A stretch of 64,000 nt of DNA, from assembly GCA_965237745.1 (NCBI GenBank), contig CBDEGL010000003.1:13470-77469 (forward strand). Reading direction: 5' to 3'. This DNA is from Dehalococcoidia bacterium. GTDB lineage: Bacteria > Chloroflexota > Dehalococcoidia > Lucifugimonadales > UBA3495. Both the position numbers and the translations under genes were made by a program. The notes beneath the pieces were generated by a model. It did not search any database. It was not told the DNA's origin and worked only from the letters and a program-made list of their open reading frames with translations. Of this stretch, positions 14,149 to 61,809 are shown one piece after another. How positions within the stretch are numbered: the stretch's first letter is position 1; each line of letters opens with the position of its first letter.

Positions 14149-15373
14149 GTAGTTCAGCTATTTTGAATTGCTGGGTAAAGGGATTTCAGCTTGATGCGCG
14201 CGTCATCGGTGGTGAAGCGCCAGTCCACTCGCACCATGTCCCGGTTGCGCTGGTTCTGCCAGGCGTCAACTTCCCGGCGCAGCACCTCTTGATCAGGAAT
14301 CCGGCGGTCCAAGCACTGCCGGGCCAGCACTCCGATTTCAATTTCAGCCATGTTCAGCCAACTCCCATGTTTGGGGGTGTAGTGAATCTCCAGACGTTCG
14401 GCGATACGCCGCGCTTCCATAGGCTCGAAGGCCTCGTATAATGAGGCCGGATGATGGGTGTTCAGGTTGTCCATCACCAGCACAATCCGGTCCTTGTCCG
14501 GGTAGTCCTCGTCCACCAACTTCTTCACTTGGTGCGCCCAGTCCACTTTCGTCCGCCGGTCCGTCACTCCGACCCGCCGCCACCCTTCCAGCGGCGCAAA
14601 CAGCATGAACCGGTTGCTCACCCCGTTGCGCTCGTATTCGTAATCATACGCGACTGCCGATCCGGGGCGAGGCGGACGCGGCAGTCGCGTTTCCTTCACC
14701 TGCTGTTTGCTGGTTTCGTCCAAGCACACCAGGACTTCATTGTCTTCATAGGGACGGTGATAGACCTCCAGCACGTCTTCCATGGCCCACACAAAGTCCG
14801 AACTGCCTTCCGGCGGGATGCACCAACACTCTTTCAGCCAAGGCTTGAGTTCGTTTTTTTTAGCGTCTTGCGCACCGTCTCCGGGTGGATGCTCTCCACT
14901 ATCTCGCACTCCACCAGCCGGTCCGCCAATAATCTCAGCGTCCAACGGGCCCGGCCTTCCGGCGGTTCCCCGCAGGCCAGCGCAATCAAGTGGGCTTCCG
15001 CAGCGCCATCCAGTTTCTTTGGCCGGCGGCGTTGTTGCTCCTTACGCCCCAAGGCCGCTTCGATCCCTTCCTCCACGCAACGGCGGCGTATCCGTTCCAC
15101 TGTGGCGCTGGCGATCTCGAGGGACCGGGCAACCTCTTCGTCCGTCAGGCCTCCGTCTTTCCGCGCTTCATCGCTCAGCAACAGGATGCGTGCATGGGTC
15201 TGCTTGTACGCTGCTGCCCGTCCCTTGGAAACCAGGGCCTTCAGTTCCTGTTGCTCTTCCGTGGTCAGTTCGATACGGTACTTCTTAGCCGGCACGACCC
15301 CTCTCCTTGGATACAATTCGCCAATGCCGGCAGAATACACCAGTTGTGCCTCAATTCAATGACGTTCAACTAC
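14149..15373 (-). mobile_element. IS630-family element, two-ORF transposase (14834-15340 and 14154-~14860)
   Basis: TA flanks, imperfect TIR GTAGTT..TTGAATTG; CLDET, VMDNLNTH and SWLNMAEIE; A9 slippery run at about 14853-14861. Confidence 0.92.
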
Positions 15374-15523
15374 TAAACTAAAGCCAAGGTGGGATATACA
15401 TTTAAGTGGCGATGGTGATCAGCTGGGTTGCGCGGGTGAATCCCTCTCATCCGTACTTGGAGAATGACCCGGCTCCGTCGTTTGACCCCCACCATCTGCG
15501 CATTTCACCTTGGCTTTAGTTTA
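15374..15523. mobile_element. 150-bp MITE (TIR TAAACTAAAGCCAAGGTG), copy 1
   Basis: Perfect terminal inverted repeats, no ORF; near-identical inverted copy at 61576-61725. Confidence 0.88.
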
Positions 15524-16208
15524 GGGTGGTGGTGCTATTTTCTCGCATGGCATCCTCCTTGATGCTATGTGAGGACCGGCCGCGTTCAGATTTGCGGCCG
15601 CTCCTGGTTGCGTTGTGGCGTCGCTCTCCCATTTCATCTCCCGGATGACCGGGTTGGGTGCGCGACATGGAAGTCTCCGCCCCTCGGTGGTGACCGAGTT
15701 GCCGGGGTTGCTGACGCCGCCCGGACACTCCGAAGAAGCCCGCATTCGACGCGAAGTCCCGGCGGAGACGCTGCTTGCCCCAATCCCAGGGCTGGGTGTG
15801 TTTCTCCCGGTAGCCGTTAATCAGCATTCTGCGGCAACCCGGGGCGATCCCTCGGCCGTGTAGGGCAGTTTGTCTCTGCTGCCGGTGATGCGAACCAGCG
15901 CGTATGCCGTGGCGCCATCCTCAACCTCAATCCCGCTCCATTCGTTGACTCCCGCGTGGAATGTCCAGAGCCTCCAGTAGTCGTCCATGAGGTGCTGCAC
16001 CTCCACACTGACCATCCGCGGGCCGAGCGCGAAGTATTTTTGCAGGCGCGCCTCGAACCCATACTCCTTTCGTTTGGCGCCATCAGGTCGGGCTGTTCGC
16101 CCGGCCTGATGGTGTTTGTGATGTGTGCTTGACTGATTTCCAGGCTGGCAGCCTGAACCGGGTCTGGCACCCGCTTGCGGCCGTCGCCGACCCAAATCGT
16201 TGAGGGAA

Positions 16209-23417: not shown

Positions 23418-23627
23418 TCACCGCCGCTCGCGGACATATTTTTCCAGGGCGTCGACGACCAGCGCGGTCATGTTGGTGTGTCCTTCCACAGCCATCACCT
23501 TCAGCTGATGGTGGAGGTCGCTCGGAATGAAGCAATGCAGGCGCGCGGTGTCCACCGCCGCTGCCTGGTCCACGAATGCGTCCCGCTCCACCTGATTACC
23601 GCGGTTGGGATTGCTTCTAATCGTCAT
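23418..23627 (-). CDS. Ribbon-helix-helix partition protein (ParG-like), copy A
   Basis: ARLHCFIPSDLHHQLKVMA...MTALVVDALEKY; overlaps the parA stop. Confidence 0.8.
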   Translation of the reverse strand: MTIRSNPNRGNQVERDAFVDQAAAVDTARLHCFIPSDLHHQLKVMAVEGHTNMTALVVDALEKYVRERR

Positions 23628-24255
23628 GGGTCAACCCCTCCAGTTCACCGATAATCTCGAGGATCTCGTTACGAGCCGTCTGGTCGCGGCCATCGACCAC
23701 CGAGTTCCCATCATTGATCGCGTTGGGGTAGGCGACGCGCTGGGTGGTACGGGCCTGCAGCACCGGGATTCCCAACTCGGTCAGCGCGACTTCGATCTGT
23801 CGGCCGAGGCGAGTGCGCGGCTGTGCCATGGTGATGACGAAAGCCGCCCTGGGAATCCCGTTGGTGGTTTTCTGACGAGCTCGTACTGCTGCCACGATGT
23901 CCGAGGCCGCCCAAACGTCCAACGGACTCGGCTTAACCGGTATCAGCACCAGGTCTGCAGCGCGCACGGCGTCGGCACTGGTCTTGGTGATCCCCGGGGG
24001 ACCATCGATGATGATCCAGTCATAGGCACGTTCCAGCGATCTGACCTGTTGGAGAAGGCCGGCCTTCCCCATTCCTTGGATGGCCAGGGACTCGGGCGAG
24101 GCCCAATCGCCGGCTGCCCAGTTTTGGGAGCTGGCTTGCGGATCGGCGTCAAGCAGCAGGACGTCCCCATTTTCCGCCAGCACTGATGCCAGGTTGGTGG
24201 CCAAGGTGGTCTTGCCAGTACCTCCCTTCTGATTCACGATCGCAACAACCGGCAT
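23617..24255 (-). CDS. parA: Short type-Ib ParA ATPase, copy A
   Basis: NQKGGTGKTT, LLLDADPQ, IIIDGPP; 212 aa. Confidence 0.93.
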   Translation of the reverse strand: MPVVAIVNQKGGTGKTTLATNLASVLAENGDVLLLDADPQASSQNWAAGDWASPESLAIQGMGKAGLLQQVRSLERAYDWIIIDGPPGITKTSADAVRAADLVLIPVKPSPLDVWAASDIVAAVRARQKTTNGIPRAAFVITMAQPRTRLGRQIEVALTELGIPVLQARTTQRVAYPNAINDGNSVVDGRDQTARNEILEIIGELEGLTHDD

Positions 24256-25851: not shown

Positions 25852-26061
25852 TTACGGCCGTGCCGCAAAATGTCCCTCGATGGCGGCAACCACCAGGTTC
25901 GTAATCGTGGTCCTCTCCTCCGCTGCCAGAACCCGCAGCCGACGGTGAAGGTCCGCCGGTATCAGGCAGTGGAGCTGCTCGGTGTCCACCGCCGCGGCCT
26001 GCTCCACGAAGGCAGCAGTGCGCTCTTCCTGACGCCGCTTGGGCCTACTGCTAAGGGTCAT
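25852..26061 (-). CDS. Ribbon-helix-helix partition protein (ParG-like), copy B
   Basis: AFVEQAAAVDTEQLHCLIPADLHRRL, paralogue of 23418-23627. Confidence 0.8.
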   Translation of the reverse strand: MTLSSRPKRRQEERTAAFVEQAAAVDTEQLHCLIPADLHRRLRVLAAEERTTITNLVVAAIEGHFAARP

Positions 26062-26689
26062 TTATCAACCTCTCCACCTCATCGCGCAGGGCGAGGATTT
26101 CGGTGCGGGCGGTCCTGTCCCTTCCTTCCAGCACCGACTTCCCCTCTATGACCGCCTGGGGATAGGCAACCCGGTCAGTGGTGCGGGCCTGCAGCACTGG
26201 CAGCCCATACTCGTCCAGCGCGGCATCGATCTGCTGGCTCAGACGGGAGCGGCGTTTGGACATGGTGATGACGAAGGCTGCCTGGGGTAGCCCGGCGGCA
26301 GCTTCCTGGCGCGCCTTCACCGCATCCACGATATCCGACACGGCCCACACGTCCCAGGGGCCGGGTTTTACCGGTATCAGCACCAGGTCGGCGGCGCGGA
26401 CGGCGTCGGCGGTGGTCCGGGCAATGCCCGGCGGACCGTCGATGATCACCCAGTGATAATCGGGTGCCCGGAGCCGCACGTCCTGGAGCAGTCGTCCTGG
26501 TTCTACACCCCTCACCTCAAGGCCCAGGAGAGGTTGGGCCCGGCTATCGGCCCAGTCCAGGGCGCTGCCCTGGCCATCGGCGTCGAGCAACAGCACTTGG
26601 AATCGATCCGCAAATGCGCAAGCCAGGTTGGTGGAGATGGTGGTTTTGCCAGTACCCCCTTTCTGGTTGACGACGGCGATGACCGGCAT
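26051..26689 (-). CDS. parA: Short type-Ib ParA ATPase, copy B
   Basis: NQKGGTGKTT, IIDGPP; 212 aa. Confidence 0.93.
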   Translation of the reverse strand: MPVIAVVNQKGGTGKTTISTNLACAFADRFQVLLLDADGQGSALDWADSRAQPLLGLEVRGVEPGRLLQDVRLRAPDYHWVIIDGPPGIARTTADAVRAADLVLIPVKPGPWDVWAVSDIVDAVKARQEAAAGLPQAAFVITMSKRRSRLSQQIDAALDEYGLPVLQARTTDRVAYPQAVIEGKSVLEGRDRTARTEILALRDEVERLINDP

Positions 26690-28786: not shown

Positions 28787-30055
28787 ATGCACATCATGAT
28801 GTTCACCGAGCGCCCCTACTACGACGTTCCCGAAGACGAGATTATCAAGAACGCCAGCTATTTCGGCATCCCCAACGAACATTTCAACCCGGAAGTAGGC
28901 GGCCAACTCTACAACTCCTATTTCGATGAGGCCGTCTACGCTGAAGAGAAGGGCTTCGACGGCGTGATGCTCAACGAGCACCATGGCACGCCCTTCTGCA
29001 TGGGCGCCGTGATGAACATTGAGGCGGCGGTGCTGGCCCGGATTACCGAGCGAGTCAAGATTGTGCTGTTGGGCAACCCGCTGCCGGTGGCCGATCCGCT
29101 GCGCCTAGCCGAAGAGCTGGCGATGATAGACATGATTTCCGGCGGGCGGCTGGTGCCCGGCTGGGTCAGGGGCGCGGGCAGCGAGTCGATTTACAACAAC
29201 GCCAATCCCGCCTACAACCGGGAGCTTTTCAACGAGGCCCACGATTTCGTAATCAAGGCGTGGACTACCCCCGGCCCCTTCCGCTTCGAGGGCAAGCACT
29301 ACCACTACCGCCACGTAAACCCGTGGGTGCTGCCGGTGCAGAAGCCCCATCCCCAGATGTGGATACCGGGGTTGGTCAGTCAGGAGACGGTGGTCTGGTG
29401 CGCCCGCCACCGCTATCCCTACCTGGCCTTGGGCACTTTCCTGGAGCCGACCCTGGAGATGGTGAAGCTGTACCGGGATACGGCTGCCGAGGAGGGGTAC
29501 GAGTCCGGGCCGGAGAATTTCGGTTACTTGCAGCGGGTAGTGGTGGCCGAGACCGAGGAGAAGGCCCAGGAATTGGGCCGCGCCTTCATGTACGGCGGCG
29601 GCATCAACGCCTTCGCCCGGCCCGAGTGGATGTTCCCGCCGGGCTATAACTCGAAAGCTGCCACCCGCCGACTGGCCCGGGTCTCCGTAGACCCTAACAG
29701 CGGCGATGAAGCGCTGGTCCTGAAGCCAGCTGATACTCCGGAAGGAATAGAAGCCAACCGGAACCAGATTTACGGACGGTTCCAAGCCGAGCAGGACAAC
29801 TTGCAACTCATCTGCGGCACGCCGGATACCGTTATCCCCAAAATTCGGCATATATTGGAAACGGTCCGCCCCGGCATATTCTCCCTGTGGCACCACCACG
29901 GCCCGGTCAGCCACGAAGACCGGATGACCAGCATCCGGCTGCTGGGCGACGAGGTGCTGCCCGCCATGCGCAGCATCGCCGACGAACTGGGACTGCCCGG
30001 CCCCTACGAACGCCTCCCCGGTTCCCGCCCCTTGGCGGCGCCGGTATCGGGCTGA
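28787..30055 (+). CDS. LLM-class flavin-dependent oxidoreductase (luciferase-like monooxygenase)
   Basis: GFDGVMLNEHH, PLRLAEELAMIDMISGGRL, PVQKPHP, CGTPDTV. Confidence 0.93.
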   Translation: MHIMMFTERPYYDVPEDEIIKNASYFGIPNEHFNPEVGGQLYNSYFDEAVYAEEKGFDGVMLNEHHGTPFCMGAVMNIEAAVLARITERVKIVLLGNPLPVADPLRLAEELAMIDMISGGRLVPGWVRGAGSESIYNNANPAYNRELFNEAHDFVIKAWTTPGPFRFEGKHYHYRHVNPWVLPVQKPHPQMWIPGLVSQETVVWCARHRYPYLALGTFLEPTLEMVKLYRDTAAEEGYESGPENFGYLQRVVVAETEEKAQELGRAFMYGGGINAFARPEWMFPPGYNSKAATRRLARVSVDPNSGDEALVLKPADTPEGIEANRNQIYGRFQAEQDNLQLICGTPDTVIPKIRHILETVRPGIFSLWHHHGPVSHEDRMTSIRLLGDEVLPAMRSIADELGLPGPYERLPGSRPLAAPVSG

Positions 30056-30247
30056 CCACTTTTCTCGGTTCCGTTCGCTTCTGATTGATACCTATGATAC
30101 CGCGCGGTTCCCCCCAAACCGCAATCAGTCAAAAGCGAACGGAAACCTCTCCGGACGCAAAAGCCCATGTAATCACCCAAAGCGTCGCCAAGCTCTGAGC
30201 GATGCCGGATGGCTTCGTCCAACAACACGAACCGGCCCCGGTAAACC

Positions 30248-30900
30248 CTACTTGGGCAGGCTGCAAACGTCCAGGGCGGTAAGGGCCAGAACTTTGGCGA
30301 CCTGCTCCATGTCGCTGATACGGCTATATTCGTCGGGGATGGTAGCCGATTCCGAGCCGCCTGGGCCATACAGCAGGCAGGGGACGCCGGCCCGCCACAG
30401 ATGGCAGGTATCGTCGCCGGTGTAGGAGCCGGGCAGTACCGTTCCCACGCCGTCGGGTTCTCGCCCTGTAACCGTGCGGTACTGCCTTAAGACGGCGTCC
30501 AGGATGTACTGGTCTTTGGGCAGGTCGAAAGGCTCCATCACGACGGTGGACACCCGGTGTTTCGGGTCGGGTGGCATCTCAATCTCGTATTGGAAGTCGG
30601 GGTCATCCGCCTTGATTTGGTCGAGAGCGTTTTCGATGTCCGCTTTGACCGACGCGGAGGTCATGCCCGGCAGGAAACGGACATCCACCAGCACGGTGCA
30701 GAAGTCGGAGACGAAGTTGGGGCCGCGTAGGTCGATAATCGCGCCGACGTTTATCCGCGGGAGACCGGGCAGGTCATCGCGCGGGGTGTAGGTGAATTTC
30801 ACGCCGTCGATGGCGGGAACGGCTTTGCACATCTTGGCGATGGCGTCAACGGCCTCCTCCTTGCGGCTGATGTGCCGGGAGTTGCCCAGGACGTGAACCG
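30248..30900 (-). pseudogene. M20/ArgE-family amidohydrolase, C-terminal part only
   Basis: INVGAI...DVRFLPG...GDDTCHL...LLYGPG...PDEY; 5' end replaced by an IS21 remnant. Confidence 0.75.
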
Positions 30901-31042
30901 CCATCTCCAGACCGGATCCTGGAGGATGACTCAGGCGTCCCAAGAAGCAGCGCCACACTGCCAAGCGCATATTCGAGCGGCTCATGGTGACGTCCAGCGA
31001 AAGTGTCCGCCCACGAGGTCCACTTTAGCGCCGCCGATTACA
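30900..31042. mobile_element. IS21 remnant (istA piece and left end)
   Basis: GACCGGATCCTGGAGGATGAC...AAGCGCATATTCGAG; terminus GCCGCCGATTACA at 31042. Confidence 0.7.
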
Positions 31043-31156
31043 CGGACTGGGGTCGCGATTATTCTAGGGTCGTCGCCACTAAGGTCTTGGGAGCGCAACT
31101 GGGTCAGGTTGCCATCTGGCTATGCTCCGTGCAGAAACTGCACTTTCTATGCACCC

Positions 31157-31717
31157 CTACCTGGCCGCCTGTTGGGTGGTCCAACGGCTGACCTCCAGGC
31201 GCTTGGCCAGTTCCCGCTGGTTCACTCCCTTTGACCGCTCCATCTGGATGTACTCCCGTTGCTGCTCGCTCAGGCTGGGCCGCCGGCCGGGGAAACGGCC
31301 CTCGGCCCGCGCCTTCGCCTGGCCCGCGACCGAGCGATCCCTGATCGAGTTCCGCCACCACTCGCTGAAGGCGAGCACCATCGAGAGCTGGAGCTTGCCG
31401 GTGGACGTGGCCGTGTCGAAGTCTTCCGCCAGGGACCGAAACTCCACTCCCGCCAGGTGCAGACCCTCGATCACCTGCAGCCCGTAGGTCAGCCCCCTGG
31501 AGAGCCGGTCGATGTGGGTGACCACCAGGGTGTCGCCCTCGGCCACCAGGTCCAGCAGTTCCAGGAGGCCGCCGCGGTCGTTCTTGGCCCCGCTGGCCTC
31601 CTCGGCTCGAATATTGCCCATGGCGCAGCCGGAGCGGACCAGCCGCTCCACCTGCAGGTCCAGGTTCTTGTCCTCGGGCTCTCTCACCGAGACCCTGGCA
31701 TAGCCGTACAGCGTCAT
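31157..31717 (-). CDS. Serine recombinase (resolvase/invertase) with C-terminal HTH
   Basis: YGYARVS, GDTLVVTHIDRLSR, GRFPGRRP, NQRELAKRLEVSRWT. Confidence 0.92.
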   Translation of the reverse strand: MTLYGYARVSVREPEDKNLDLQVERLVRSGCAMGNIRAEEASGAKNDRGGLLELLDLVAEGDTLVVTHIDRLSRGLTYGLQVIEGLHLAGVEFRSLAEDFDTATSTGKLQLSMVLAFSEWWRNSIRDRSVAGQAKARAEGRFPGRRPSLSEQQREYIQMERSKGVNQRELAKRLEVSRWTTQQAAR

Positions 31718-31722
31718 CCTGC

Positions 31723-31925
31723 TCTACCCCTGGCTGGAATACCTGAAGTATGACTTTCTGCCAGGGGCCTTGCAACTGGGTTTTCCAGCCACCCCTTCAG
31801 CTATGGGGAGTGGGGATTTACAGCCATGGCTGTAAACAGGGGCTGTAAACAGGGCTGTTTCCAGCCATGGCGGGCGGGTGCGGCCTGGTCAGAGTTGCAG
31901 ACTCGGCGATCATGCGGTAGGGACG
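31723..31925. repeat. Putative res/regulatory region; inverted homologue at about 55410-55602
   Basis: Shared GGAATACCTGAAGTATG, TTCCAGCCACCCCTTCAGCTA and palindrome TTTACAGCCATGGCTGTAAA. Confidence 0.7.
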
Positions 31926-32258
31926 GCGTTCCGGGAGCGCCGTTGACATCTGGCCGTAGCGCGGAAGTATCCACCGCTGGCATGATTGAACAGTCGCTGA
32001 CCAACGGCGACGCCAGCCGACCCGACCAACCGGGCGGTCGTCTTTTTTGCCATGAGCCTTTGAGGACTTGCCGCCGACTCCGGAACATGTGGCTGAACCA
32101 AGGTGCATCAGCCGTAATTGTCGGCGAAGACCCCGGTCCAGAGAAACGTACCGGGCCGCCACGCTTGGGGGGGCCCAATGCGTATAATTGCCAACATCTC
32201 CCACACCGGATCCCATCCAAGACACTGTTCGCTTGAACAGACCGAGGACGAGGCAACC

Positions 32259-33854
32259 ATGACCTCACAGAACCACATCGAAATCCGCCTGGCCGAACTC
32301 CTCAAGGAAATCAAGGACGGGGACCAATGGCAGGTGGGCTACCCAGGCAACCAGAACTTCGACTACTCCCCTCTCATACCATTCCTCAGCCACTGCCTCA
32401 ACAACATCGGAGACCCCTTCCACCAGACCCACTACCGGGGCAACACTCACCAGTTTGAGCGAGAGGTCATCCTCCATTTCGCCCAACTCACCGGACTGGA
32501 TTCCGACGACGCCTGGGGCTACGTCACCTCGGGCGGCACCGAGGGCAACATGTACGGCCTCTACCTGGCCCGGGAACTCCATCCCGAGGGTATGCTCTAC
32601 TTCTCCGAGGAAGCCCACTATTCGATCCTCAAGATTGCCCGCATCCTCAACATGCCTCACACCACCGTCAAACGACGTACCGACGGCGAGATCGACTACG
32701 ACGACCTCCGGGACATGCTGACCGTCCATCGGGACCGTCCCGCCATCATCCTGGCCACCATCGGCACCACCATGCGCGGCGCCGTGGACGACATCCCCGC
32801 GATCCGGCAAATCATTGACGAGCTGGACATCGCGGAACACTACATTCACGCGGACGCAGCGCTCAGCGGCATGATCCTGCCCTACGTGGATGACCCACAG
32901 CCTTTCGGGTTCGACGCCGGCATCGACAGCATCTCCATCAGCGGCCACAAACTCATCGGCGCACCCCTGCCCTGCGGTATCGTTCTCACCCGCAAACACC
33001 TGGTTGAAATCCTGGGCAGGGCCGTGGAACTCGTCGGCGTCAACGACACCACCCTGTCCGGTTCCCGCAACGGCCTGACCCCGCTCATGCTCTGGTACGC
33101 CATCAACCGTTACGGCGAACATGAATGGAGAGAAACCGTCGGCGGCATGCTCAACGTTGCCGAGTACGCCGTGAAACGGTTCAATGAACACGGCATCAAC
33201 GCATGGCGACACCGGAACTCTCCAACTGTTGTATTCGACCGACCCTCGCAGGAAGCCTTCGACAAATGGCAGATTGCCCCCGAGGGCGAAGTGGCCCACA
33301 TCATCACCATGCCCCACGTGGATTTCGAAACCATCGACCGGCTGGTCGAAGACTGCATCAGCCCCCGTCCCGAACTGCCGCAGGTACACGATCTCCAGCC
33401 AGTGGAAACCGGCCTGCCGGCTCAGGAGCAACCGACGGAGCCCGCTCACGCAACAACGATGCAGCGCATCGTGATCATGGCCGAAAATCGCATCGGGACC
33501 ATTGCCCGGATTGCCGGCACCCTGGCCGAGAGCGGAGTGAACCTCAACAGCATCGCGACCGAGAACGAGGGACAGCACGGAGTGGTGATCATCACCACCG
33601 ACCGGACGGACCACGCCCTTGCGATCCTCAACCAAGCCGGCTTCAAGGCAGTCGCTGACGAAGCTGTACTGGTCCAGCTGGCGGACCAAGCCGGAGCCCT
33701 GGCCAACCTAGCCGGCGAACTCAAGGACGCCGGCCTCAGCATCAGGACTTTCCACATCATCGAACGCCGGGATGACTACGCGACCGCGGCCATCACCACC
33801 GATGACCAGGAAAAGGCCAAGACGGCCCTGGCCAACCGCTATACCGTAATATAA
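32259..33854 (+). CDS. PLP-dependent histidine/serine-decarboxylase-family protein fused to C-terminal tandem ACT domains
   Basis: GYP...FDY, WGYVTSGGTEGN, HADAALSGMILP, SGHK, SGSRNG; tail ENRIGTIARIAGTLAESGVNL and DQAGALANLAGELKDAGLSI. Confidence 0.88.
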   Translation: MTSQNHIEIRLAELLKEIKDGDQWQVGYPGNQNFDYSPLIPFLSHCLNNIGDPFHQTHYRGNTHQFEREVILHFAQLTGLDSDDAWGYVTSGGTEGNMYGLYLARELHPEGMLYFSEEAHYSILKIARILNMPHTTVKRRTDGEIDYDDLRDMLTVHRDRPAIILATIGTTMRGAVDDIPAIRQIIDELDIAEHYIHADAALSGMILPYVDDPQPFGFDAGIDSISISGHKLIGAPLPCGIVLTRKHLVEILGRAVELVGVNDTTLSGSRNGLTPLMLWYAINRYGEHEWRETVGGMLNVAEYAVKRFNEHGINAWRHRNSPTVVFDRPSQEAFDKWQIAPEGEVAHIITMPHVDFETIDRLVEDCISPRPELPQVHDLQPVETGLPAQEQPTEPAHATTMQRIVIMAENRIGTIARIAGTLAESGVNLNSIATENEGQHGVVIITTDRTDHALAILNQAGFKAVADEAVLVQLADQAGALANLAGELKDAGLSIRTFHIIERRDDYATAAITTDDQEKAKTALANRYTVI

Positions 33855-34249
33855 GCACACCGCTGCGCCAGGGCGCAGCGGTCTTGCCAGCCCAGCCGTT
33901 CACGACCCAGAACTATACCCAGGACACGACGCCAAAGCGTACAGACTCCGTGCGTGGATACATGACCACATGGGAAACCACGCAACCGCCGAGCGGGACC
34001 TGCAATTAGCCAAGTGTTGGGTCGGACAATGGTGTCCGTCCGAAGTGACGGTCACGGGCAACGATTCAGGAATAGCAGGCCAACCCGTCAATGGTGTCGA
34101 GAAGTTGGGCCACTGGGGTGTCGCTGTTCAGGATAAGGCAATCGTCTTGATAAGGGGCATTTAACGGACTTTTATGGGACCGTCTAACAATCGGGCGGTC
34201 ATGCCGCCAGCTGCACCCATCAGACTGATTTCCGGAGGTCGTCCCGGTA

Positions 34250-35250
34250 ATAACGAGCGACGGCGCCCCTGCCGCCTGGGCCTCGGTGTACCTGGCTGGC
34301 ATCGTGGGACTCTCCCATCTTCCGGCGGTCATCAGCTCCGGCAGCTCCGCCCCCGCGGCGCTCAGGTCCTGCGCCATGCCCACCCGGGGGGAGTGGGCGC
34401 TGAACCCTTCGCCTAGGCCAGCCATCTTGGTCGCCGCCTTGATCCTACGGGAGATCTGGCCGGCCGACAGCCCGAAGACCCTGGTGCCCGGGTCGATCAG
34501 CGCCTCCTGGGGCCGGATGGCCAGCAGGGACTCCACCGCCGCGGGACCCGGGTAGAGCACCGCGCCCTCCGCTATCTGGTCGGTCCTGGACCTCAGGACG
34601 TGCAGCCGGCCCGAGCCGTCCTCGTGGAACTCCAGGTCGCCCCACCGGAGCACCGAGGTTTCGGAGCGGCGCAGCAGGCCGTCCCGCATCACCTCCAGGA
34701 GGGCCAGGTCCACTGCGGCACGCCTGGCCGCCTGAACCTCGGTCTCCTTGCGCCGGCGCTTGCCCTGGTCGACCCGCTGGATCCGGGCGGTGGCCTTCAC
34801 TGCGGCCAAAGCCTCGCTGGTCAGACCCTTGGCCTGCTTCCTGGGTTTCCCGTATTCCTTGGCCAGCCGTTTCGTGGTGACTTTGACGAGCGGCCGCGTG
34901 GTCGGGTCCTCGTGTCCGCCCAAGCGGTGGGCCGCGGCGATCGCCGCCAGGCGCATACGCGCGGTGGCCAGCGTCTTGCCCTCCGTCTCCACCAGGTGCT
35001 CCAGGTAACGGCCGACGTCGGCCGGACCTGCCGGCAGGCCGGCGCACCGGTGCTCGAGGCACCAGCTGGTGAAGTGCTTCCAGCCTACGACGTAGGCCCG
35101 CCTGGTGTTGGGTGACCAACTGCGGGCCTCTGCCCTGGCGTCGGCCAGGACGTCGGCATCGGCCGGTGAGGTGGGCGCTCCCTCCGGAGGCGTCGGCAGG
35201 AGCGCCGGCGTTTCCCGGGAAACGGACGAGATTTCAGTTCTGGTTGTCAT
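34250..35250 (-). CDS. Cre-like tyrosine recombinase (3' end probably frameshifted)
   Basis: SPNTRRAY..W..F..WC; GLLRRSE; RSRTDQ; SAHSPRVG; AGRWESPTMPARY. Confidence 0.82.
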
Positions 35251-35323
35251 GGTCTTCCCATTGAAGGGGATCACAGGTTCAACCTCGCGCAAGGCCCATT
35301 ATGGTTAGTTCTGAAATCCGGGT

Positions 35324-35795
35324 CTAGTTGTCGCGTCCCATCTCGAGGATGCGGGCGTGCGCCGGAAGCGTCTTTCCGCTCTTTTCCAGGGCCTCTTCGA
35401 CCTGCGCAAGATCATGCACGTATATCTCAGCTCGGTTCTCGAATACGTTGATGCCGGATGCCGCTTGAAACCCCAGTCCCCTGACTACCAAGCCAGCTTC
35501 TCGCTGGGCTCGCTTCAATTCCTCGAGGGTTGCATCGACGGTTCTGACTTCGATAATGTCCACCAATGGCCCGTCCTGGACATACTTGGCGATTGTCTCC
35601 TCCCCGTCCCGGGTGAACGCTGCCACTACACGGTACTCTGGTTCGTGCTGAATCCAGAAACCTCCGAGGGTGTCGGCCTCGTTGGATTCGAGAGTGGCCC
35701 CCAGCTTCCCGATTGGGTCTTGCAGCGTTAGCCGCCTGATTGCCTCCGACAACTCAACGCCTTGATCTGCGGCGTACATCTGGGCATCTTGCGCC
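35324..35795 (-). CDS. Hypothetical protein (protease prodomain-like, 5' end possibly lost)
   Basis: DAQMYAADQGVELSEAIRRL...GGFWIQHEPEYRVV. Confidence 0.45.
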
Positions 35796-35859
35796 ATTAA
35801 CGGACATTTCCTGCACGCCCCCAGCTCATGGCGAACCGGGTGCTTGCAGCGGGTAGGTG

Positions 35860-36150
35860 TGGTGTAGGTCAGCTCAGCCACTTGAGGGTCTCGTCGGCTG
35901 CCTAGCCCCGGGTGTAGCGCGCGATCAAGTCTCCGTGCCGCCATCGCCCTGGTGCTGGATCACTGCGGTGGGCGCTTCTGCGACGACCATCCCCCTGGCC
36001 ACACCGATGCGGCCGCTGTGTCCGGAGAAACCATCGCCCAGGCCTGCGGCCCTGGCTGCGTCCCTTACCCGGTTGGCCAGGGTCTCGCCGGTCAGGCCGA
36101 ACACCGAGGCCTCCGAGACGGGGTGTTCGGCCCCGTCCGGCTGAATCTCG
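35860..36150 (-). pseudogene. Cre-like tyrosine recombinase C-terminal remnant
   Basis: GFSGHSGRIGVARGMVVA...QGRWRHGDLIARYTRG with frameshifts and a stop. Confidence 0.7.
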
Positions 36151-36308
36151 CGCAGGGCGCGGGAGGATGGCTCGAGGGAACTTTGAATCTGAAAGTTCCC
36201 ATTTCCGGCCCACTGGCCGGCTCAGGTGCCTTGGTCTCAGATTCGCGCTGTGGCTCGGAGAGGGGGGCAGCTTGCCCGAATGGGAACTTTTGGTGTAAAA
36301 GTTCCCAT

Positions 36309-36744
36309 ATGACGATTCCTCACTACTGGAATCCCCAGCAGGTCGAGCGGCTCCTGGACTCCCTGGCGGCCCTGGGCATTCGCCGCGCCGGGGTGGCGGC
36401 GCTCATCATGTGGCGATCCGGGCTGCGTGTCGGCGAGACCGTGGCTCTGGAATGGCGGGACATAGACGTCACGGCCGGCACCCTGCTGGTCCGCCGCGGC
36501 AAGGGCGGCAGGGGCCGTACCGTTCCGCTGCACCCGGACCTGGCCAGCCTGTTCGCCAACTGGCCCACGTCCTACGGTCCGCGGGACCTGGTTGTCGGAC
36601 TGACCCGGAAGACGGCCCTGCGGCATCTGCGGGCTGGCATCGAGCATGCCGGCTTGGATGAGGAGTCGCCCGGGACCGGGCGCCAGAGAGCCGGGGCCCA
36701 TAGCCTGCGTCACAGTGCGGCGCGTCATTGGCTGACCACCGCGG
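36309..36744 (+). pseudogene. XerD-like tyrosine recombinase truncated by an IS21 end at 36745
   Basis: SGLRVGE, RRGKGGRGRTVPL, AHSLRHSAARHWL, then TGTCAATGGCG; catalytic Tyr missing. Confidence 0.82.
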
Positions 36745-36831
36745 TGTCAATGGCGCCCGCAATCTCTACCTCACCGGCGTGTCGCGGGTCCCAACCTGGG
36801 ATCGGCAGAAGCGTGGATAGAGTTTTGTCAG

Positions 36832-38433
36832 TCACTCTTTTAAACCGCTCCTTCTGTGTTCCGTCGCACCAGTCTCCCTTCCTACCGGAAGGGGTAGAGG
36901 TGAGGCAGGGGGGTGATTTGACGAGCGAGACGACGACCGCAGCAACGGCTGGCGGTCCTCTCGAGATAGCAGCTCTGCGTACGGGCCGAGGGCCGCTTCA
37001 AACTTGCGGTGATAGTACTCCGGCAGCTCCTTCAATCTTCCCTCATGAAAGGCCCTGTATTCCCGGTCAGTCTTCATCACCTGCAGAATGCGCTTGTACT
37101 CTCTCTGGATACGCCACGCGCCTTGGGAGCGAAGGGCGTGGAGCACGCGGAGCGGATACCCCGGCGTGGTCAATAACCGCTTCATGACGACCTGCGGAGA
37201 TGCCATGTGTGAATACATATCGACGAGATGCTCGTAGTAGGTGATCGGATCGTAGTTCTTGAGGGTGGTGACGATGTGAGGCGCGTAATAGAAAGCGAAC
37301 GGTATCGACATCAGGATGCGCCCCTCGTCGAGGTACCGGTCGAACAGGGGAGTGCCGCCGAATGGAGTGGGGATATTGATGGTCGGCCACACAAAAGGCG
37401 CGCGCGACATGAATTCCTTGGTCAACTCGGCTGGTCTGTTTCCTTCGTCCACGTCCAGCCCGAATATCAGATTGGCCTGCATCCCGGGCACGTACTCGCG
37501 GATCAGCCGGAAATGGTCGATTACCTGGTTCAGCTTGATCTCATCAGACTGTTTCGACCCGACGCCGGACTTGTTCGAGTATGCGGACCAGGACTCAACT
37601 CCAGGAGCTAAGTAGAGGCACCCGGTGGAGCGCAGCTTTTCCAGTCTGGACGTGCGCAGGATAGATAAGGAGCTCTCCATGATGTAGTAGGTGCGATTTC
37701 CGTGCGGGACCCTCTCTAGGACCGCGAACAGCTCGTCGAACTTTACGGCAAAGTTCGGGTCGTGAAAGCTCACAAGTAGCTTGGGGTGCTTGTCGAAGAT
37801 GAACCGCAGGTCGGCCTCGAGTCTGTCCAAGGGCAGCAAGGCGAACGGGTTGCTCCAATCGATGCAAAAGTCGCAAGCGTAGGGGCACCCGACGCTGGCG
37901 AGCATTGGCACAGTGCTGGATATATAGGGCTTTCCGCCGGAGAAGATCGAGGTCCGGAGTTCCGGCATGCGTTCCTCGACGGTTGGCAGGTCCTTGAGCT
38001 GACGCCCGCTGGTCACCGTCTCTCCCTTCGGCGCCTGCCTCAGGATGTCCTCCACCAGGGTCTTATCGCAATCGAGCACGACCACGTCGAAGAATCGGCG
38101 GCAATCGTCTGGAAAAGACTTCGCGTGTGGGCCGCCGATCACCGTGCGGGCGCCGTCCAGCCGGAAGAGCTTGGCGAGGGCGTAGGCCAGTGCGCTCGCC
38201 TGTGTATAAGTGGAGATAAACACCACGTCCAAATCGTCCGGCAAGAGGGCCTTGGCGTCGCCCTGCCCGTAGTAGGTGGCGTAGAAGGACTCGTGCCCCA
38301 GCTGCCGGCACCATACGCTGACCGCCTGTGGCATGACGCTGGCGTACTGCTTGACGAAGTAGTGAGCGTACGCCGAGTGGCTCCAATGGCTGTTTCTCTC
38401 GGGACGCAGAATCTCCAGAACCCCTATTCGCAT
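36832..38433 (-). CDS. Cobalamin-binding radical SAM protein
   Basis: TVIGGPHA, GCPYACDFC (CxxxCxxC), PGVES, LIFGLD, TPFGGTPLF. Confidence 0.9.
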   Translation of the reverse strand: MRIGVLEILRPERNSHWSHSAYAHYFVKQYASVMPQAVSVWCRQLGHESFYATYYGQGDAKALLPDDLDVVFISTYTQASALAYALAKLFRLDGARTVIGGPHAKSFPDDCRRFFDVVVLDCDKTLVEDILRQAPKGETVTSGRQLKDLPTVEERMPELRTSIFSGGKPYISSTVPMLASVGCPYACDFCIDWSNPFALLPLDRLEADLRFIFDKHPKLLVSFHDPNFAVKFDELFAVLERVPHGNRTYYIMESSLSILRTSRLEKLRSTGCLYLAPGVESWSAYSNKSGVGSKQSDEIKLNQVIDHFRLIREYVPGMQANLIFGLDVDEGNRPAELTKEFMSRAPFVWPTINIPTPFGGTPLFDRYLDEGRILMSIPFAFYYAPHIVTTLKNYDPITYYEHLVDMYSHMASPQVVMKRLLTTPGYPLRVLHALRSQGAWRIQREYKRILQVMKTDREYRAFHEGRLKELPEYYHRKFEAALGPYAELLSREDRQPLLRSSSRSSNHPPASPLPLPVGRETGATEHRRSGLKE

Positions 38434-40585: not shown

Positions 40586-41807
40586 GTACTGAACCAAATC
40601 AGGATTGGCAGGGATAGAGGCGATGGAGTTTGCGTCTGGCGTCTTGGGCAGTGAACCGCCAGTTAATGGTAGCTCCTATCGCGTTCCGCTCTGACACGCA
40701 GGCGCTGACGGCTCTTTCCAGGCTGTCCTCATCTCCGTTGCGTCCGCGCAGGCAGGCCCGGGCCAGCACGCTGAACTCGATCTCCGCCATATTCAGCCAG
40801 CTTCCGTGCTTGGGAGTGTGGTGGAACTCCAGCCGCTTGGCGATGCGCCGGGCCTCGGCCGCCGGGAAAGTCTCGTAAAGCGAGGCCATCCGATGCGTGT
40901 TCAGATTGTCGAGAACCAGCCGAATCACCGGGACATCGGGGTAGGCCTCATCCACCAGCCACCGCATCTGCTGAGCGAAGTCCTGCATGGTGCGTTGCCG
41001 GGTTATCGCCACGTGGCGCCAGCCCCGGCGAGGCTCACAGGTGAGGAACAGGTTGCGCGTCTCTCCCCGCTGGTATTCGTAGTCCTCACGCCTCGGCCTC
41101 CCAGGCTTTGCCGGCAGCGGTTCCCTCACGTCGGCCAGCAACTGGGTGGAGGTCTCGTCAAAGCAGACCACCGGCCTCTGCGGATCGTAGGGCTCGGCGT
41201 AGAGATCCAGCACGTCCTCCATGGCCGCCACGAACTCTCCACCTACCTTGGGGATGCACCATTGTTTCTTGAGCCACGGCTTGAGCGTGTTTTTTTTAGC
41301 CGCAGGCGGACCGTCTCGGGAGATAAAGACTCCACCAATCCCAACTCCACCACCTTGCCCGCCAGGGCCCGCATGGTCCAGTGGTCATGACCGTCGGGCA
41401 CCGGGCTGCAGGCCAAGGCTATCAGGTGGGCCTCCACCCTTTCATCCACCTTTCCGGGCCGGTTGACCTGGTTATGGTGCCTCAGCACCTCGTCCAGTCC
41501 TTCCTCGGCATACCGCCGCTTGGTGCGGAACACGGTCCGCTCCGACACGTCCAGTGCGGTGGCCACCTGGGGGGCGGTCCAGCCCTCATCTATCTTGATC
41601 AGGATGCGGGCCCGGGTAATCGCCTGTGCGGAACTCCTCCCAGCCCTGATCATCTTCCTGAGCCGTCCCTTTTCCTGTGTTGCCAGCCGGACTCCGTACT
41701 TCTCCTGCACCATGACCACCTCACATCCCACAACCCTTCGTCTATCCCCAAGGTAGCATCCTGTCTGGGCTCACGTACTAACTGACAATGCCAGATTGGC
41801 CGAATAC
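40586..41807 (-). mobile_element. IS630-family element, two-ORF transposase (41243-41713 and 40599-~41290)
   Basis: CFDET, VLDNLNTH, SWLNMAEIE; A8 slippery run; TA flanks. Confidence 0.92.
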
Positions 41808-45300: not shown

Positions 45301-45344
45301 CTGCTGGGATCGTCGTCGCCGGGAAGCTTGGGGGGGTGTGTATC

Positions 45345-47561
45345 ATGAATCCCATGACGAACGACCTGGAACAGCTGCGTGGCGAGGTCGAACGGCTGGT
45401 CTACAGCTCGGAGGAGTCTGGATTCACCATCTGCCGCCTTGTGGTTCCGGGCAGGGGCGACCTGGTGACCGTTGCCGGAACCATGCCGGGAATTCAGCCG
45501 GGAGAGCGGTTGCACCTGCAAGGCAGGTGGATAAATCATCCCATCCATGGCTATCAGTTCCGGGCTGACAGCTACAGCTCCCAGTTGCCCGCCAGCGCCA
45601 ATGCCGTGCGCCGCTACCTGGCCTCAAGCCTGGTGAAGGGCATCGGCCCGGTGCTTGCCGGAAGGCTGGTGGACTGCTTCGGCGACGAGACCCTGCGAGT
45701 GATCGATGAGCAGCCGGAGCGTCTGGCCGAGACGCCGGGGGTCGGGCCACGCCGGGTGGAGAGCATCAAGCGGGCTTGGGCGGAGCAGCAGGAGATACGC
45801 AACGTGATGCTGTTCCTACAGGGCCACGGGGTCAGCGCCGCCTACGCCACCCGCATCTACAAGACATACGGCCAGGACGCGGTGAAGGTCGTTCAAGAGA
45901 ACCCCTACCGGCTGGCCCAGGACGTGCGGGGGATTGGTTTCATCACCGCCGACAAGATCGCCCGGGAGATGGGGATAGACGAGCATTCGCCCCACCGGGC
46001 CCAGGCCGCCCTGGAGCACCTGCTGTTGGAGCGGGCCGACGAGGGCCACGTCTTCATCCCCAATGCTGAGCTGGTTCAGATGTGTCAAAGCCGTTTCGAC
46101 CTCCCCGAGGATCTGCTGACGGCGGCGGTGGGAAGTCTGCGGAAGGCGGGACGGATCGTACTGGATGGAGAGGCTGTGTTCCTTCGGGGCCTCTATCTTG
46201 CTGAGCGAGCCGTGGCCGATTCCATCAGGGCTCTGGTGGCCAGCCCTGGGCAGCGGCGCGAGTTCGACGCTCCGGCCGCCGTGGACTGGGCCAGCCGTCG
46301 GATGGGAGTGGAGCTGACCGAGGAACAGAGGCAGGCGGTCCACGAAGCCGTGTCGCAGAAGGTCTTCGTTCTGACGGGCGGGCCTGGGACCGGCAAGACA
46401 ACCATACTGCGCGCCGTGATATCGATCCTCGAGGCTCTTGGCCAGCGGGTGGCACTGGCGGCTCCCACCGGGAGGGCGGCCAAGCGGCTCGGCGAGGCCG
46501 CTGGCCGGGAAGCTCAGACGCTGCACCGTCTGCTGGAGTTCAAGCCCGGGGAGGGCCGATTCGGACGAGACGCCGAGCGGCCCCTGGGCGCCGATGCCGT
46601 GGTGGTCGACGAGACCTCAATGCTGGACATCGTGCTGTGCCATCACCTGCTGCAGGCCGTGCCACGCCACGCCTCGGTGCTATTCGTCGGAGATGCGAAC
46701 CAACTGCCCTCCGTTGGGCCCGGCAAGTTCCTTGGGGACGTTCTTGAGTCCGGAGTTGTACCCTTCCTCCGTCTTGAGCGGATTTTCCGTCAAGGGGACC
46801 GGAGCGGCATCGTCGAGGCGGCCCACCGGGTCAACCAGGGCCGCCTGCCCTCTCTCGGCTCCAGCGACTCCCAGGGGGACTTCTACTTCGTCGAGGCCGG
46901 AGAACCGGAGGCGGCGGCCAATGCCGTCGTCCGCATCTGCGCAGAGCGGATCCCGGCGCGGTTCGGATTGCGTCCCATGCGGGACATTCAGGTGCTGTGT
47001 CCCATGAACCGGGGGGTTGTCGGCGTCCATCGACTCAACGACAGGCTCCGGGAGGCCCTCAACCCGGTGGGAACCGAGGTAACACGCTTCGGACGGACTT
47101 TCCGGGTGGGGGACCGTGTGCTCCAGACGGTCAACAACTACGACAAGGATGTGTTCAACGGCGATCTGGGCTGGGTAACCGGGGTGGACCACGCCGTCGG
47201 GCGGATCGCGGTGAGCTTCGAGGAAACCGGCGTGGACTACGATTTCTCGGAACTCGACGAACTGCAGCCCTCCTTCGCAATGACCGTACACCGGGCCCAG
47301 GGAAGCGAGTTTCCCGCGGTGGTGGTTCCGGTCTTGACGCAACATTACCCGATGCTGCAGCGCAACCTGCTATACACCGCGATCACCAGGGGAAGGAGGC
47401 TGGTCGTGGTTGTCGGAAGCCGACGGGCGTTGGGGATGGCGGTGCGCAACAACCGTCCCCGGGAGCGCAACTCGATGCTCGGGATCCGGCTGTCGGGGAC
47501 GGAGACAGGAAGCATGAGGGCGTTTCCTGAAGCCGGCTTCGAGCGACTCGGTCTCCTGTAG
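45345..47561 (+). CDS. recD2: ATP-dependent RecD2-like SF1B DNA helicase
   Basis: VKGIGP HhH, ENPYRL, GGPGTGKTT, APTGRAAKRL, VVDETSM, VGDANQLPSVG, TVHRAQGSEF, LLYTAITR. Confidence 0.95.
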   Translation: MNPMTNDLEQLRGEVERLVYSSEESGFTICRLVVPGRGDLVTVAGTMPGIQPGERLHLQGRWINHPIHGYQFRADSYSSQLPASANAVRRYLASSLVKGIGPVLAGRLVDCFGDETLRVIDEQPERLAETPGVGPRRVESIKRAWAEQQEIRNVMLFLQGHGVSAAYATRIYKTYGQDAVKVVQENPYRLAQDVRGIGFITADKIAREMGIDEHSPHRAQAALEHLLLERADEGHVFIPNAELVQMCQSRFDLPEDLLTAAVGSLRKAGRIVLDGEAVFLRGLYLAERAVADSIRALVASPGQRREFDAPAAVDWASRRMGVELTEEQRQAVHEAVSQKVFVLTGGPGTGKTTILRAVISILEALGQRVALAAPTGRAAKRLGEAAGREAQTLHRLLEFKPGEGRFGRDAERPLGADAVVVDETSMLDIVLCHHLLQAVPRHASVLFVGDANQLPSVGPGKFLGDVLESGVVPFLRLERIFRQGDRSGIVEAAHRVNQGRLPSLGSSDSQGDFYFVEAGEPEAAANAVVRICAERIPARFGLRPMRDIQVLCPMNRGVVGVHRLNDRLREALNPVGTEVTRFGRTFRVGDRVLQTVNNYDKDVFNGDLGWVTGVDHAVGRIAVSFEETGVDYDFSELDELQPSFAMTVHRAQGSEFPAVVVPVLTQHYPMLQRNLLYTAITRGRRLVVVVGSRRALGMAVRNNRPRERNSMLGIRLSGTETGSMRAFPEAGFERLGLL

Positions 47562-61574: not shown

Positions 61575-61575
61575 C

Positions 61576-61725
61576 TAAACTAAAGCCAAGGTGAAATGCG
61601 CAGATGGTGAGGGTCAGACGACGGAGCCGGGTCATTCTCCAAGTACGGATGAGAGGGATTCACCCGCGCAACCCAGCTGATCACCATCGCCACTTAAATG
61701 TACATCCCACCTTGGCTTTAGTTTA
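61576..61725. mobile_element. 150-bp MITE, copy 2
   Basis: Inverted near-identical copy of 15374-15523. Confidence 0.88.
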
Positions 61726-61809
61726 GTGTCTCAGTTTGGCCTGTTCTTGATCGTGGACCTTAGCCAAACTGTGACACTACTCCACTATGCCGCTGTGCAG
61801 TTTCGTTCT

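Follow-up and report, generated by a model that had tools for sequence, protein, structure and literature searches.

A decarboxylase core fused to a tandem ACT pair

We analyzed a stretch of 64,000 nucleotides from a Dehalococcoidia bacterium (assembly GCA_965237745.1, contig CBDEGL010000003.1, positions 13,470 to 77,469 of the forward strand; hereafter the window). The gene of interest encodes a pyridoxal 5'-phosphate (PLP)-dependent decarboxylase that is fused to two ACT domains and carries a leucine in place of the tyrosine of its catalytic loop. Window coordinates are used throughout, L-numbers denote loci in other genomes and P-numbers homologous proteins; the features are collected in Table 1. 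On the plus strand, the open frame runs from 32118 to 33854, and the ATG at 32259 gives a protein of 531 amino acids, followed by a TAA stop codon. This ATG, and a GAGG box 5 nt before it, are kept in all 11 aligned close loci.

The N-terminal core belongs, by sequence and fold and above curated cut-offs, to the histidine decarboxylase/serine decarboxylase (HDC/SDC) branch of the group II PLP decarboxylases. It matched the NCBIfam model NF002748 ("histidine decarboxylase") over residues 5-368 with 475.3 bits (cut-off 305) and Pfam PF00282 (pyridoxal-dependent decarboxylase) with 68.8 bits (cut-off 27). The best solved relatives in phmmer were the HDC 7ERV (2.5e-104) and the plant (Arabidopsis) SDC 8JG7 (2.1e-92), and with E-values of 1e-104 to 1e-142 for the domain and homology matches chance is no concern. 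We predicted the structure with AlphaFold2 (mean predicted local distance difference test, pLDDT, 79.5). Foldseek aligned this model to 7erv with a template modelling (TM) score of 0.88 (5.5e-37) and to 8jg7 with a TM score of 0.82, both normalized to the target and covering the core only, about 365-370 columns.

A disordered linker (residues ~371-400, pLDDT <50) follows the core, and downstream of it DSSP analysis of the models revealed two beta-alpha-beta-beta-alpha-beta units. PF01842 (ACT) matched two stretches (2.9e-15), and the ACT_8 pair model PF19571 spans residues 400-522. The pair also gave a profile match to 2f06 (6e-12), and Foldseek related it to aspartokinase and acetohydroxyacid synthase (AHAS) regulatory subunits at 1e-6 to 1e-5. 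An earlier interpretation made from the DNA letters alone (hereafter the sequence-only reading) had described an HDC-like core, a Pro/Glu linker and two ACT repeats, and Pfam and NCBIfam bore this architecture out.

Comparison with seven close loci yielded ratios of nonsynonymous to synonymous substitution rates (dN/dS) of 0.14-0.23 for the whole gene. Taken by region, dN/dS was 0.11-0.19 in the decarboxylase part, 0.05-0.29 in the ACT part and 0.6-1.2 in the linker. Judged by these ratios, the linker evolves neutrally, both flanking domains are under purifying selection and the protein is not decaying.

Table 1. Features of the decarboxylase-ACT gene and of its surroundings in the window.
Feature	Position	Strand	Evidence
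Complete coding sequence (decarboxylase core, linker, two ACT domains)	32259..33854	+	open reading frame, Pfam, NCBIfam, dN/dS
Purine-rich ribosome-binding site GAGGACGAGG, end 5 nt before ATG	32244..32253	+	sequence, alignment
Group II PLP decarboxylase core, HDC/SDC type, residues 1-372	32259..33374	+	NF002748, phmmer, Foldseek
Y28-P29-G30, "YPX" substrate-pocket motif	32340..32348	+	alignments
Lys231, PLP Schiff-base lysine in S-G-H-K	32949..32951	+	alignments
Flexible catalytic loop, residues 257-269, pLDDT <50 in model	33027..33065	+	model, alignment
CTC codon of Leu258, site of catalytic-loop Tyr	33030..33032	+	alignment
Pro/Glu/Gln-rich linker, residues 373-399 (about 371-400)	33375..33455	+	pLDDT <50, dN/dS
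ACT domain 1, beta-alpha-beta-beta-alpha-beta, residues ~403-466	33465..33656	+	Pfam, model
ACT domain 2, residues ~470-531	33666..33851	+	Pfam, model
G+C hairpin, then TATAAT-like box at 32183-32188; putative promoter region	32153..32188	+	11-locus alignment, by eye
G+C-rich hairpin 6 nt past stop codon, likely transcript end	33860..33881	+	read from sequence
Serine recombinase (resolvase), flanking; adjoins the gene in L001 too	31157..31717	-	PF00239, 6.6e-32
Tyrosine recombinase, flanking	34066..35292	-	PF00589
Tyrosine recombinase, flanking	35952..37187	+	domain scan
ParA-like ATPases, two	23617-24255, 26051-26689		domain scan
Radical SAM gene	36832-38433		domain scan
IS630-type transposase genes	40599-41231		domain scan
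RecD2-type helicase	45336-47561		domain scan

A leucine occupies the site of the catalytic-loop tyrosine

The tyrosine at issue (Tyr341 in AtSerDC) lies in a mobile catalytic loop and is taken as the residue that protonates the carbanion; a comparison of eight group II decarboxylases counts it among 13 residues that all of them have in common (PMC11407765). In the phmmer alignments, Leu258 of the window protein ('ravELvgvnDTTLSGSRNG') stands opposite the tyrosine of 7erv ('veiDYisahDKTITGSRNG') and of 8jg7 ('snvEYlasrDATIMGSRNG'). It falls on the tyrosine of the '(D/E)Y' motif in the loop and precedes the D-x-T-x-x-G-S-R-N-G block by five residues, and its spacing of 27 residues from Lys231 equals that between Lys309 and Tyr336 in CsAlaDC (PMC11407765). 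The codon is CTC. The substitution observed in the sequence-only reading was correct in every particular: the loop tyrosine that would protonate C-alpha is absent from the window protein. The loop has low pLDDT in the model, as expected for this loop.

The remainder of the active site is kept. Residues were mapped from CsAlaDC numbering (PMC11407765) by arithmetic offset, with no direct alignment, subtracting 76 ahead of a two-residue gap and 78 beyond it; F106 to G30 and K309 to K231 served as checks at the two ends. The PLP-contact and conserved group II residues mapped in this way are E67, G93, T94, E95, H120, K125, G169, T171, D177, H197, D199 and A201, as well as P208, S224, H230, K231 and S269. 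For comparison we used a word-seeded search, in which 4160 of 8000 scored candidates were relatives; the 120 best of these and the query form the 121 homologues referred to below. All mapped residues were invariant in 27 fused homologues and unchanged in all aligned residues of the 121 homologues, bar one K231N. The Lys231 position thus holds a lysine in 119 of the 121, an asparagine in one and a gap in one. Among the residues that hold PLP, K231, H120, D199, A201, T171, G93, T94, H230 and S269 are invariant, and of all mapped group II and PLP residues the loop tyrosine alone is missing.

The fusion and its two-gene relatives

The 121 homologues include 53 full-length fusions, 52 of them at 72-96% identity to the query and one (P0062) at 52%, and 57 decarboxylase-only proteins of ~376 amino acids at 63-69% identity. 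In addition, a relative is encoded at 471 loci in a scan that took one genome for each species; the best 80 were kept, and 79 of these hold the loop region. By title, 64 of the 80 loci come from Dehalococcoidia and four from Chloroflexota/Chloroflexi, and the remaining 12 lack a named lineage; further names among the titles are Nitrospinota, 'Candidatus Oxydemutatoraceae' and 'candidatus Porisulfidus'. The family is found mostly in metagenome-assembled genomes (MAGs) of Dehalococcoidia.

At 69 of the 79 loci the decarboxylase gene is followed by a separate gene for the ACT pair, encoding a protein of ~130 amino acids, and the two form an operon. The second gene mostly starts 10-50 nt past the first stop codon or overlaps it, often behind a GGAG-type box, and its frame relative to the first gene is the same in 29 loci and different in 40. 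The 29 same-frame loci (for example L015, L017, L021, L022, L026 and L027) have a single stop codon between the genes, a TGA in 24 cases; with an own start and often a GGAG box, they read as ordinary coupled genes. An intact fusion was found in nine of the 79 loci (L001-L006, L008, L011 and L014). L007, counted among the 69, is a member of the window clade in which a frameshift in the linker at about 9135 re-splits the fusion, and in a further locus, L009 (8001-8855 and 15415-16236), ~6.6 kb of inserted DNA split it. Fusions also occur in a distant Tyr-bearing clade (P0062, P0124, P0125), hence the fusion arose more than once. Judged from these arrangements, the fusion is a derived state of the widespread two-gene operon, nearly confined to the window clade, and the linker of the window protein sits where the two-gene form has a stop codon and an intergenic stretch.

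The conserved, tight linkage together with repeated fusion gives good genetic grounds for a joint function of ACT protein and decarboxylase. The glycine of the beta1-alpha1 loop is the usual ligand site of ACT domains. In both ACT units this glycine (G16 and G82 of the ACT alignment) was invariant in 26 of 26 sequences. A complex prediction of the core (residues 1-372) with the ACT pair (398-531) gave a median score of 0.28 against a mark of 0.32, which bears neither way on binding. By analogy with the ACT regulatory subunits of aspartokinase and AHAS, the pair probably binds an amino acid and tunes the activity of the decarboxylase. Other C-terminal additions were seen in relatives, namely a methyltransferase domain in P0228, which has Phe at the loop site, and a DUF6875 domain in P0254.

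The loop tyrosine was lost repeatedly

The sequence-only reading had advised a search for the same fusion and substitution in homologues. Both were found, and the loss of the tyrosine recurs. At the 79 loci, the loop position is occupied by Tyr (57 loci), Leu (20), Phe (one) or Val (one); in L026, a one-residue deletion shifts the register and the loop residue is Tyr. The 121 homologues have Leu in 81, Tyr in 24, Cys in 13 and Phe in three. In a broader sample of 150 representatives of 50%-identity clusters, 116 of the 138 alignable sequences have Tyr at the site, and the other 22 include variants with Val, Leu, Cys or Phe whose motifs are otherwise intact, as well as some misaligned fragments.

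We calculated trees from the alignment of the decarboxylase part after cutting out the loop (columns 250-268), using FastTree (193 rows) and IQ-TREE (83 rows, thinned to 90% identity within state). The Tyr/non-Tyr label needs 14 changes on both trees, and at least seven are forced by the well-supported branches alone. Forcing all 35 non-Tyr rows into one clade was 557 log-likelihood units worse and was rejected by the approximately unbiased test (p = 1.2e-53). The window clade encodes Leu by CTC and a second clade by CTG or TTG; the Phe codon is TTC and the Val codon GTT. This pattern fits a path from TAC via TTC to CTC or TTG and a long retention of Leu. Indeed, Leu was held through synonymous codon change and across clades that are 57-69% identical.

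Within the window clade, nine full-length fusions carry Tyr and are scattered among the Leu forms on the tree. Apart from P0037, which has only the Tyr in common with the others, they share 261I and 262H (versus 261V and 262N). Seven of these eight also have 259T or 259A (versus 259V), and 284H/285H recurs in several. The pattern suggests an exchange of two loop haplotypes by recombination rather than repeated point mutation. Homologues only ~6% apart in the decarboxylase core differ at the loop residue; the Tyr-type P0023 and its Leu-type sister P0013, for instance, differ at 22 of 372 core positions. Furthermore, five of ten assemblies with a window-clade Leu gene also hold a Tyr-type two-gene paralogue, a lower bound, as it is drawn from the best 80 of 471 loci. 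The gene itself is found up to twice per genome (L002 and L004; L003 and L005). DNA similarity between the window and its ten closest loci is limited to ~32174-33862, in some out to 31841 or 34094, with different insertion sequence (IS) elements and recombinases beyond. With the shared DNA confined in this way, the gene travels as a self-contained unit.

Substrate pocket and gene context of relatives

In the plant enzymes, the third residue of the YPX motif is a determinant of the substrate pocket, being Tyr for serine and Phe for alanine (PMC11407765). The HDC 7erv and two HDCs annotated on plasmids have YPE and the plant SDC has YPY. The window protein does not carry the YPE of HDCs and reads YPG. 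YPE was found in none of 191 family sequences, where the X position holds Thr, Gly, Val, Ala, Cys, Ser or Arg; among the 53 fusions it is G in 26, A in 11, T in 10, S in three and R, V and C in one each. Taking these HDCs together with the plant work, the glutamate of YPE may confer histidine specificity. The window protein is probably not a histidine decarboxylase, and the HDC name is unlikely to fit its function, since it has YPG, no family member has YPE and X varies even among the fusions. The HDC family assignment made by the sequence-only reading stands for membership of the HDC/SDC branch (NF002748); histidine is probably not the substrate. Hundreds of proteins from Dehalococcoidia and related MAGs would probably be misnamed by the automatic label 'histidine decarboxylase'. 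Megablast of 30000-36000 against a plasmid collection gave no match, and tblastn against the same collection retrieved ordinary HDCs only, at an identity of up to 48%.

The context of the two-gene operon in relatives offers a hint about the substrate. At 28 of the 79 loci, the operon is followed by a same-strand gene that scores 544.9 bits (cut-off 480.2) on TIGR02309, an equivalog model for HpaB, the oxygenase component of 4-hydroxyphenylacetate 3-monooxygenase. These loci have a MOSC-domain gene after HpaB, a divergent alpha/beta hydrolase gene upstream and a class III aminotransferase or DAO-type oxidase gene nearby. The link to HpaB points to a 4-hydroxyphenyl (tyrosine-derived) substrate for that subfamily. 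The sequence-only reading had the gene standing alone among recombinases; this holds in the mobile clade of the window, but elsewhere the operon adjoins the HpaB monooxygenase gene. A distinct Tyr-bearing YPC subfamily of the operon (L067-L080, including Nitrospinota MAGs) adjoins complex I (nuo) genes, with an Amidohydro_2 gene downstream in ten loci.

Predicted chemistry and competing explanations

Replacement of the loop tyrosine is known to redirect group II enzymes. DDC Y332F works as an oxidative deaminase dependent on decarboxylation, and forms aldehyde in an O2-dependent manner (PMC7497351). The change from Tyr to Phe is called the 'fingerprint' of plant aldehyde synthases (10.1101/404970), and legume SDC-like enzymes with this change convert Phe, Met, Leu and Trp to aldehydes, with formation of H2O2 (PMC4177580). 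AtSerDC Y341F and CsAlaDC Y336F lose amine formation (PMC11407765). These four sources agree with the statement of the sequence-only reading that the loop tyrosine is the proton donor; its replacement redirects or abolishes amine formation. Leu258 of the window protein is likewise a residue unable to donate a proton, a replacement that matches the aldehyde synthases in kind but not in letter, as the natural replacement described is Phe.

Our best explanation, which we hold with about as much doubt as confidence, is that the window protein is an ACT-regulated, aldehyde-forming enzyme for an aromatic or hydrophobic amino acid, not histidine. An intact PLP enzyme of the HDC/SDC branch, with a tandem-ACT regulatory partner fused at its C-terminus, would decarboxylate its amino-acid substrate. 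Without the loop tyrosine, C-alpha of the quinonoid would not be protonated by the loop and the amine would most likely not be released. As in DDC Y332F and the aldehyde synthases of plants, O2 would then trap the quinonoid, and aldehyde, NH3 and H2O2 would result; without O2 the products would be aldehyde and pyridoxamine 5'-phosphate (PMP). The substrate is probably aromatic or hydrophobic, with tyrosine or phenylalanine as the leading guess, and the ACT pair would sense an amino acid, possibly the substrate itself, and gate the H2O2-producing reaction. The use of O2 is plausible, since a luciferase-like monooxygenase gene is encoded in the window and relatives adjoin HpaB and complex I genes.

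A wider proposal, which we put forward tentatively, concerns the whole family. A bacterial lineage may have made an HDC/SDC-type decarboxylase into a natural O2-dependent aldehyde synthase under its own ACT-pair sensor. Amine-forming (Tyr) and aldehyde-forming (Leu, Cys, Phe, Val) versions would exist side by side and be interconverted often, partly by exchange of loop segments, and product chemistry would be a switchable trait on mobile DNA.

Several observations weigh against our best explanation. AtSerDC Y341F is nearly inactive, and the available portion of that report gives no aldehyde measurement (PMC11407765). The natural precedent is Phe rather than Leu, and we found no characterized enzyme with Leu at this site. 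Among the columns listed, no residue outside the loop co-varied significantly with the Tyr/non-Tyr state, in a comparison of only seven independent pairs and hence of low power. In the 28 HpaB-linked loci the loop residue is Tyr in 19 and Leu in nine, with the same neighbours (class III aminotransferase or DAO-type oxidase) beside both. Because the context of the two forms is the same, both may serve one pathway and the tyrosine may matter less there. Aldehyde and amine could both feed one route in this context, which is also compatible with a functionally mild Tyr/Leu change. Finally, the window clade has no conserved neighbours, such that the proposal of an aromatic substrate is borrowed from paralogues that are 57-69% identical.

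The shared context of the Tyr and Leu forms would also fit an ordinary amine-forming decarboxylase, in which water, His120 or Lys231 protonates C-alpha, Leu258 is tolerated and the product is unchanged. We regard this as rather unlikely, albeit worth serious attention. His120 is kept, and for plant enzymes an active-site His instead of Tyr has been proposed as the direct proton donor (noted in PMC7497351). A residue other than Tyr also occupies the site in about one sixth of the broader representatives, some of them misaligned. However, amine formation is lost in every tested replacement described in the cited papers (DDC Y332F, AtSerDC Y341F, CsAlaDC Y336F and the plant aldehyde synthases), and the tyrosine belongs to the 13 residues conserved in eight group II decarboxylases (PMC11407765).

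A different fate of the quinonoid would make the protein a decarboxylation-dependent transaminase, in which protonation at C4' gives aldehyde and PMP, and a keto acid restores PLP with no need for O2. Dialkylglycine decarboxylase is a decarboxylating transaminase that regenerates PLP with a keto acid in this manner. Dehalococcoidia include many anaerobes, a point in favour of an O2-free reaction, but O2-using enzymes are encoded in the window and in related loci, and we know of no group II decarboxylase that recycles PMP catalytically. The aldehyde would be identical to that of our best explanation, and DDC Y332F turns PLP to PMP at once under anaerobic conditions (PMC7497351). On balance, we consider such a transaminase distinctly unlikely.

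It is improbable that the protein is catalytically dead, a single-turnover sensor or regulator, or a recently disabled copy on mobile DNA. The window clade does lie among IS elements and recombinases, and broken copies exist (the frameshifted L007 and the interrupted L009), as does a K231N homologue. Nevertheless, no PLP residue is lost, purifying selection acts on both domains, and Leu persisted through synonymous codon changes and between divergent clades. A true histidine decarboxylase, as the NF002748 equivalog model (475 bits, above its cut-off of 305) and the best match in the Protein Data Bank would name it, is highly improbable given YPG in place of YPE, the absent catalytic tyrosine, an identity to HDCs of just 45-48% and a nearly equal match to plant SDC.

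Relation to known systems

The HDC of Photobacterium phosphoreum (7ERV) and the HDC annotated on the Vibrio anguillarum plasmid pJM1 have the same fold and belong to the same subfamily, at 45-47% identity. They share with the window protein the S-G-H-K lysine and the D-x-T-x-x-G-S-R motif, but have the loop Tyr and YPE where the window protein has Leu and YPG. The HDCs also lack an ACT partner: no listed Foldseek match aligned beyond the length of the core, the best three covering ~365-371 columns. The plant enzymes AtSerDC (8JG7) and CsAlaDC (8JIK) are 39% identical, with TM scores of 0.80-0.82, and their PLP contacts map one-to-one to the window protein. They carry Tyr341 and Tyr336, which Y-to-F mutants identify as needed for amine formation, and YPY and YPF, respectively (PMC11407765), and they end in a C-terminal zinc finger instead of ACT domains. 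Streptomyces L-methionine decarboxylase (7CIF/7CIG; phmmer 8.7e-32) is likewise bacterial, of the same superfamily and active on a hydrophobic amino acid, yet it is only 24% identical, larger (557 amino acids) and devoid of an ACT domain.

In chemistry, the closest parallels would be the legume SDC-like acetaldehyde synthases MtAAS and CaAAS, the plant aromatic aldehyde synthases and DDC Y332F; in all of these group II enzymes, as in the window protein, a residue unable to donate a proton stands in for the loop Tyr. The natural plant enzymes have Phe, are eukaryotic and have no regulatory domain, whereas the window protein has Leu and its relatives Cys, Phe or Val. The parallel may be read as one of working alike, not of membership. 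With regard to regulation, a tandem ACT pair of ~130 amino acids as found here also occurs in the aspartokinase beta subunit, the AHAS small subunit (IlvH/IlvN), BT0572 (2F06) and YdjB (9VP8). ACT regulatory subunits adjoin or are fused to their catalytic subunit in the same way, but the partner here is a group II PLP decarboxylase.

In the open literature, with subscription journals outside the search, we found no description of an ACT regulatory domain paired with a group II PLP or histidine decarboxylase, nor, in the open literature searched, anything that links SAR202 with histidine decarboxylase. Titles and abstract openings of this literature named no natural bacterial aldehyde synthase of the Tyr-less group II type. 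Group II decarboxylases, the aldehyde-synthase logic of Tyr loss and ACT regulation are each known; what appears to be new is that they are combined, which residue is used and that the site toggles repeatedly in bacteria. Aldehyde synthases that arose by Tyr loss from group II decarboxylases are known from plants and insects, and in the literature searched none was natural and bacterial and none had an allosteric domain. If the proposed regulation is true, the ACT pair would be the first ACT-type regulatory subunit described for group II PLP decarboxylases. The family is also a natural experiment, as it holds close homologues that differ at a residue that determines the chemistry. Should the HpaB link hold, these enzymes would mark the entry of aromatic amino acids into catabolism in these uncultured bacteria.

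Transcription signals and mobile surroundings

Upstream of the gene, a hairpin (32153-32176) lies directly 5' of the TATAAT-like box, and its stem shows paired, compensatory changes between close loci; an insulating terminator and a site for protein binding are conceivable roles. The box at 32183-32188 is kept in the 11 aligned close loci. It was recognized by eye and by conservation only, and a sigma-70 scan of 31700-34100 listed no full promoter. The hairpin past the stop codon was not listed by the terminator scan, and its T-run is weak. An Rfam scan of 31000-35000 found no riboswitch or leader, but returned two chance-level palindromic 'mir-132' matches (E ~0.5) at 31811-31883. A conserved stretch at 31880-32140 was considered as a remnant of the alpha/beta hydrolase gene of the HpaB-type loci and was rejected (tblastn E at least 0.03). 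When the whole window was searched by tblastn for the conserved neighbours (HpaB, MOSC and others), there was no match.

The region 20000-47600 of the window is dense in mobile-element genes, which besides those of Table 1 include IS110 and IS21 (IstB and a Mu-type transposase). Just upstream of the resolvase gene lies a 17-nt inverted repeat (31823-31871; 94% complementary, 15-nt spacer). It marks the left boundary of the DNA that the window has in common with L001 and L002, and the chance-level palindromic Rfam matches fall here on both strands; the repeat may be a recombination site. In L001, the DNA after the gene (9604-9821) matches 36280-36744 of the window, and ~2.4 kb of the window (33862-36280), including the recombinase gene at 34066-35292, is absent there.

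A 153-bp element is present twice in the window, at 15372-15524 and, in opposite orientation, at 61575-61727, and seven copies were found within 17.6 kb in L001. Its termini are perfect inverted repeats of ~20 bp (ACTAAACTAAAGCCAAGGTG and its reverse complement at the other end). In an alignment of two window and three L001 copies, mean column identity is 91%, short unrelated flanks within the aligned stretches included. The element looks like a miniature inverted-repeat transposable element.

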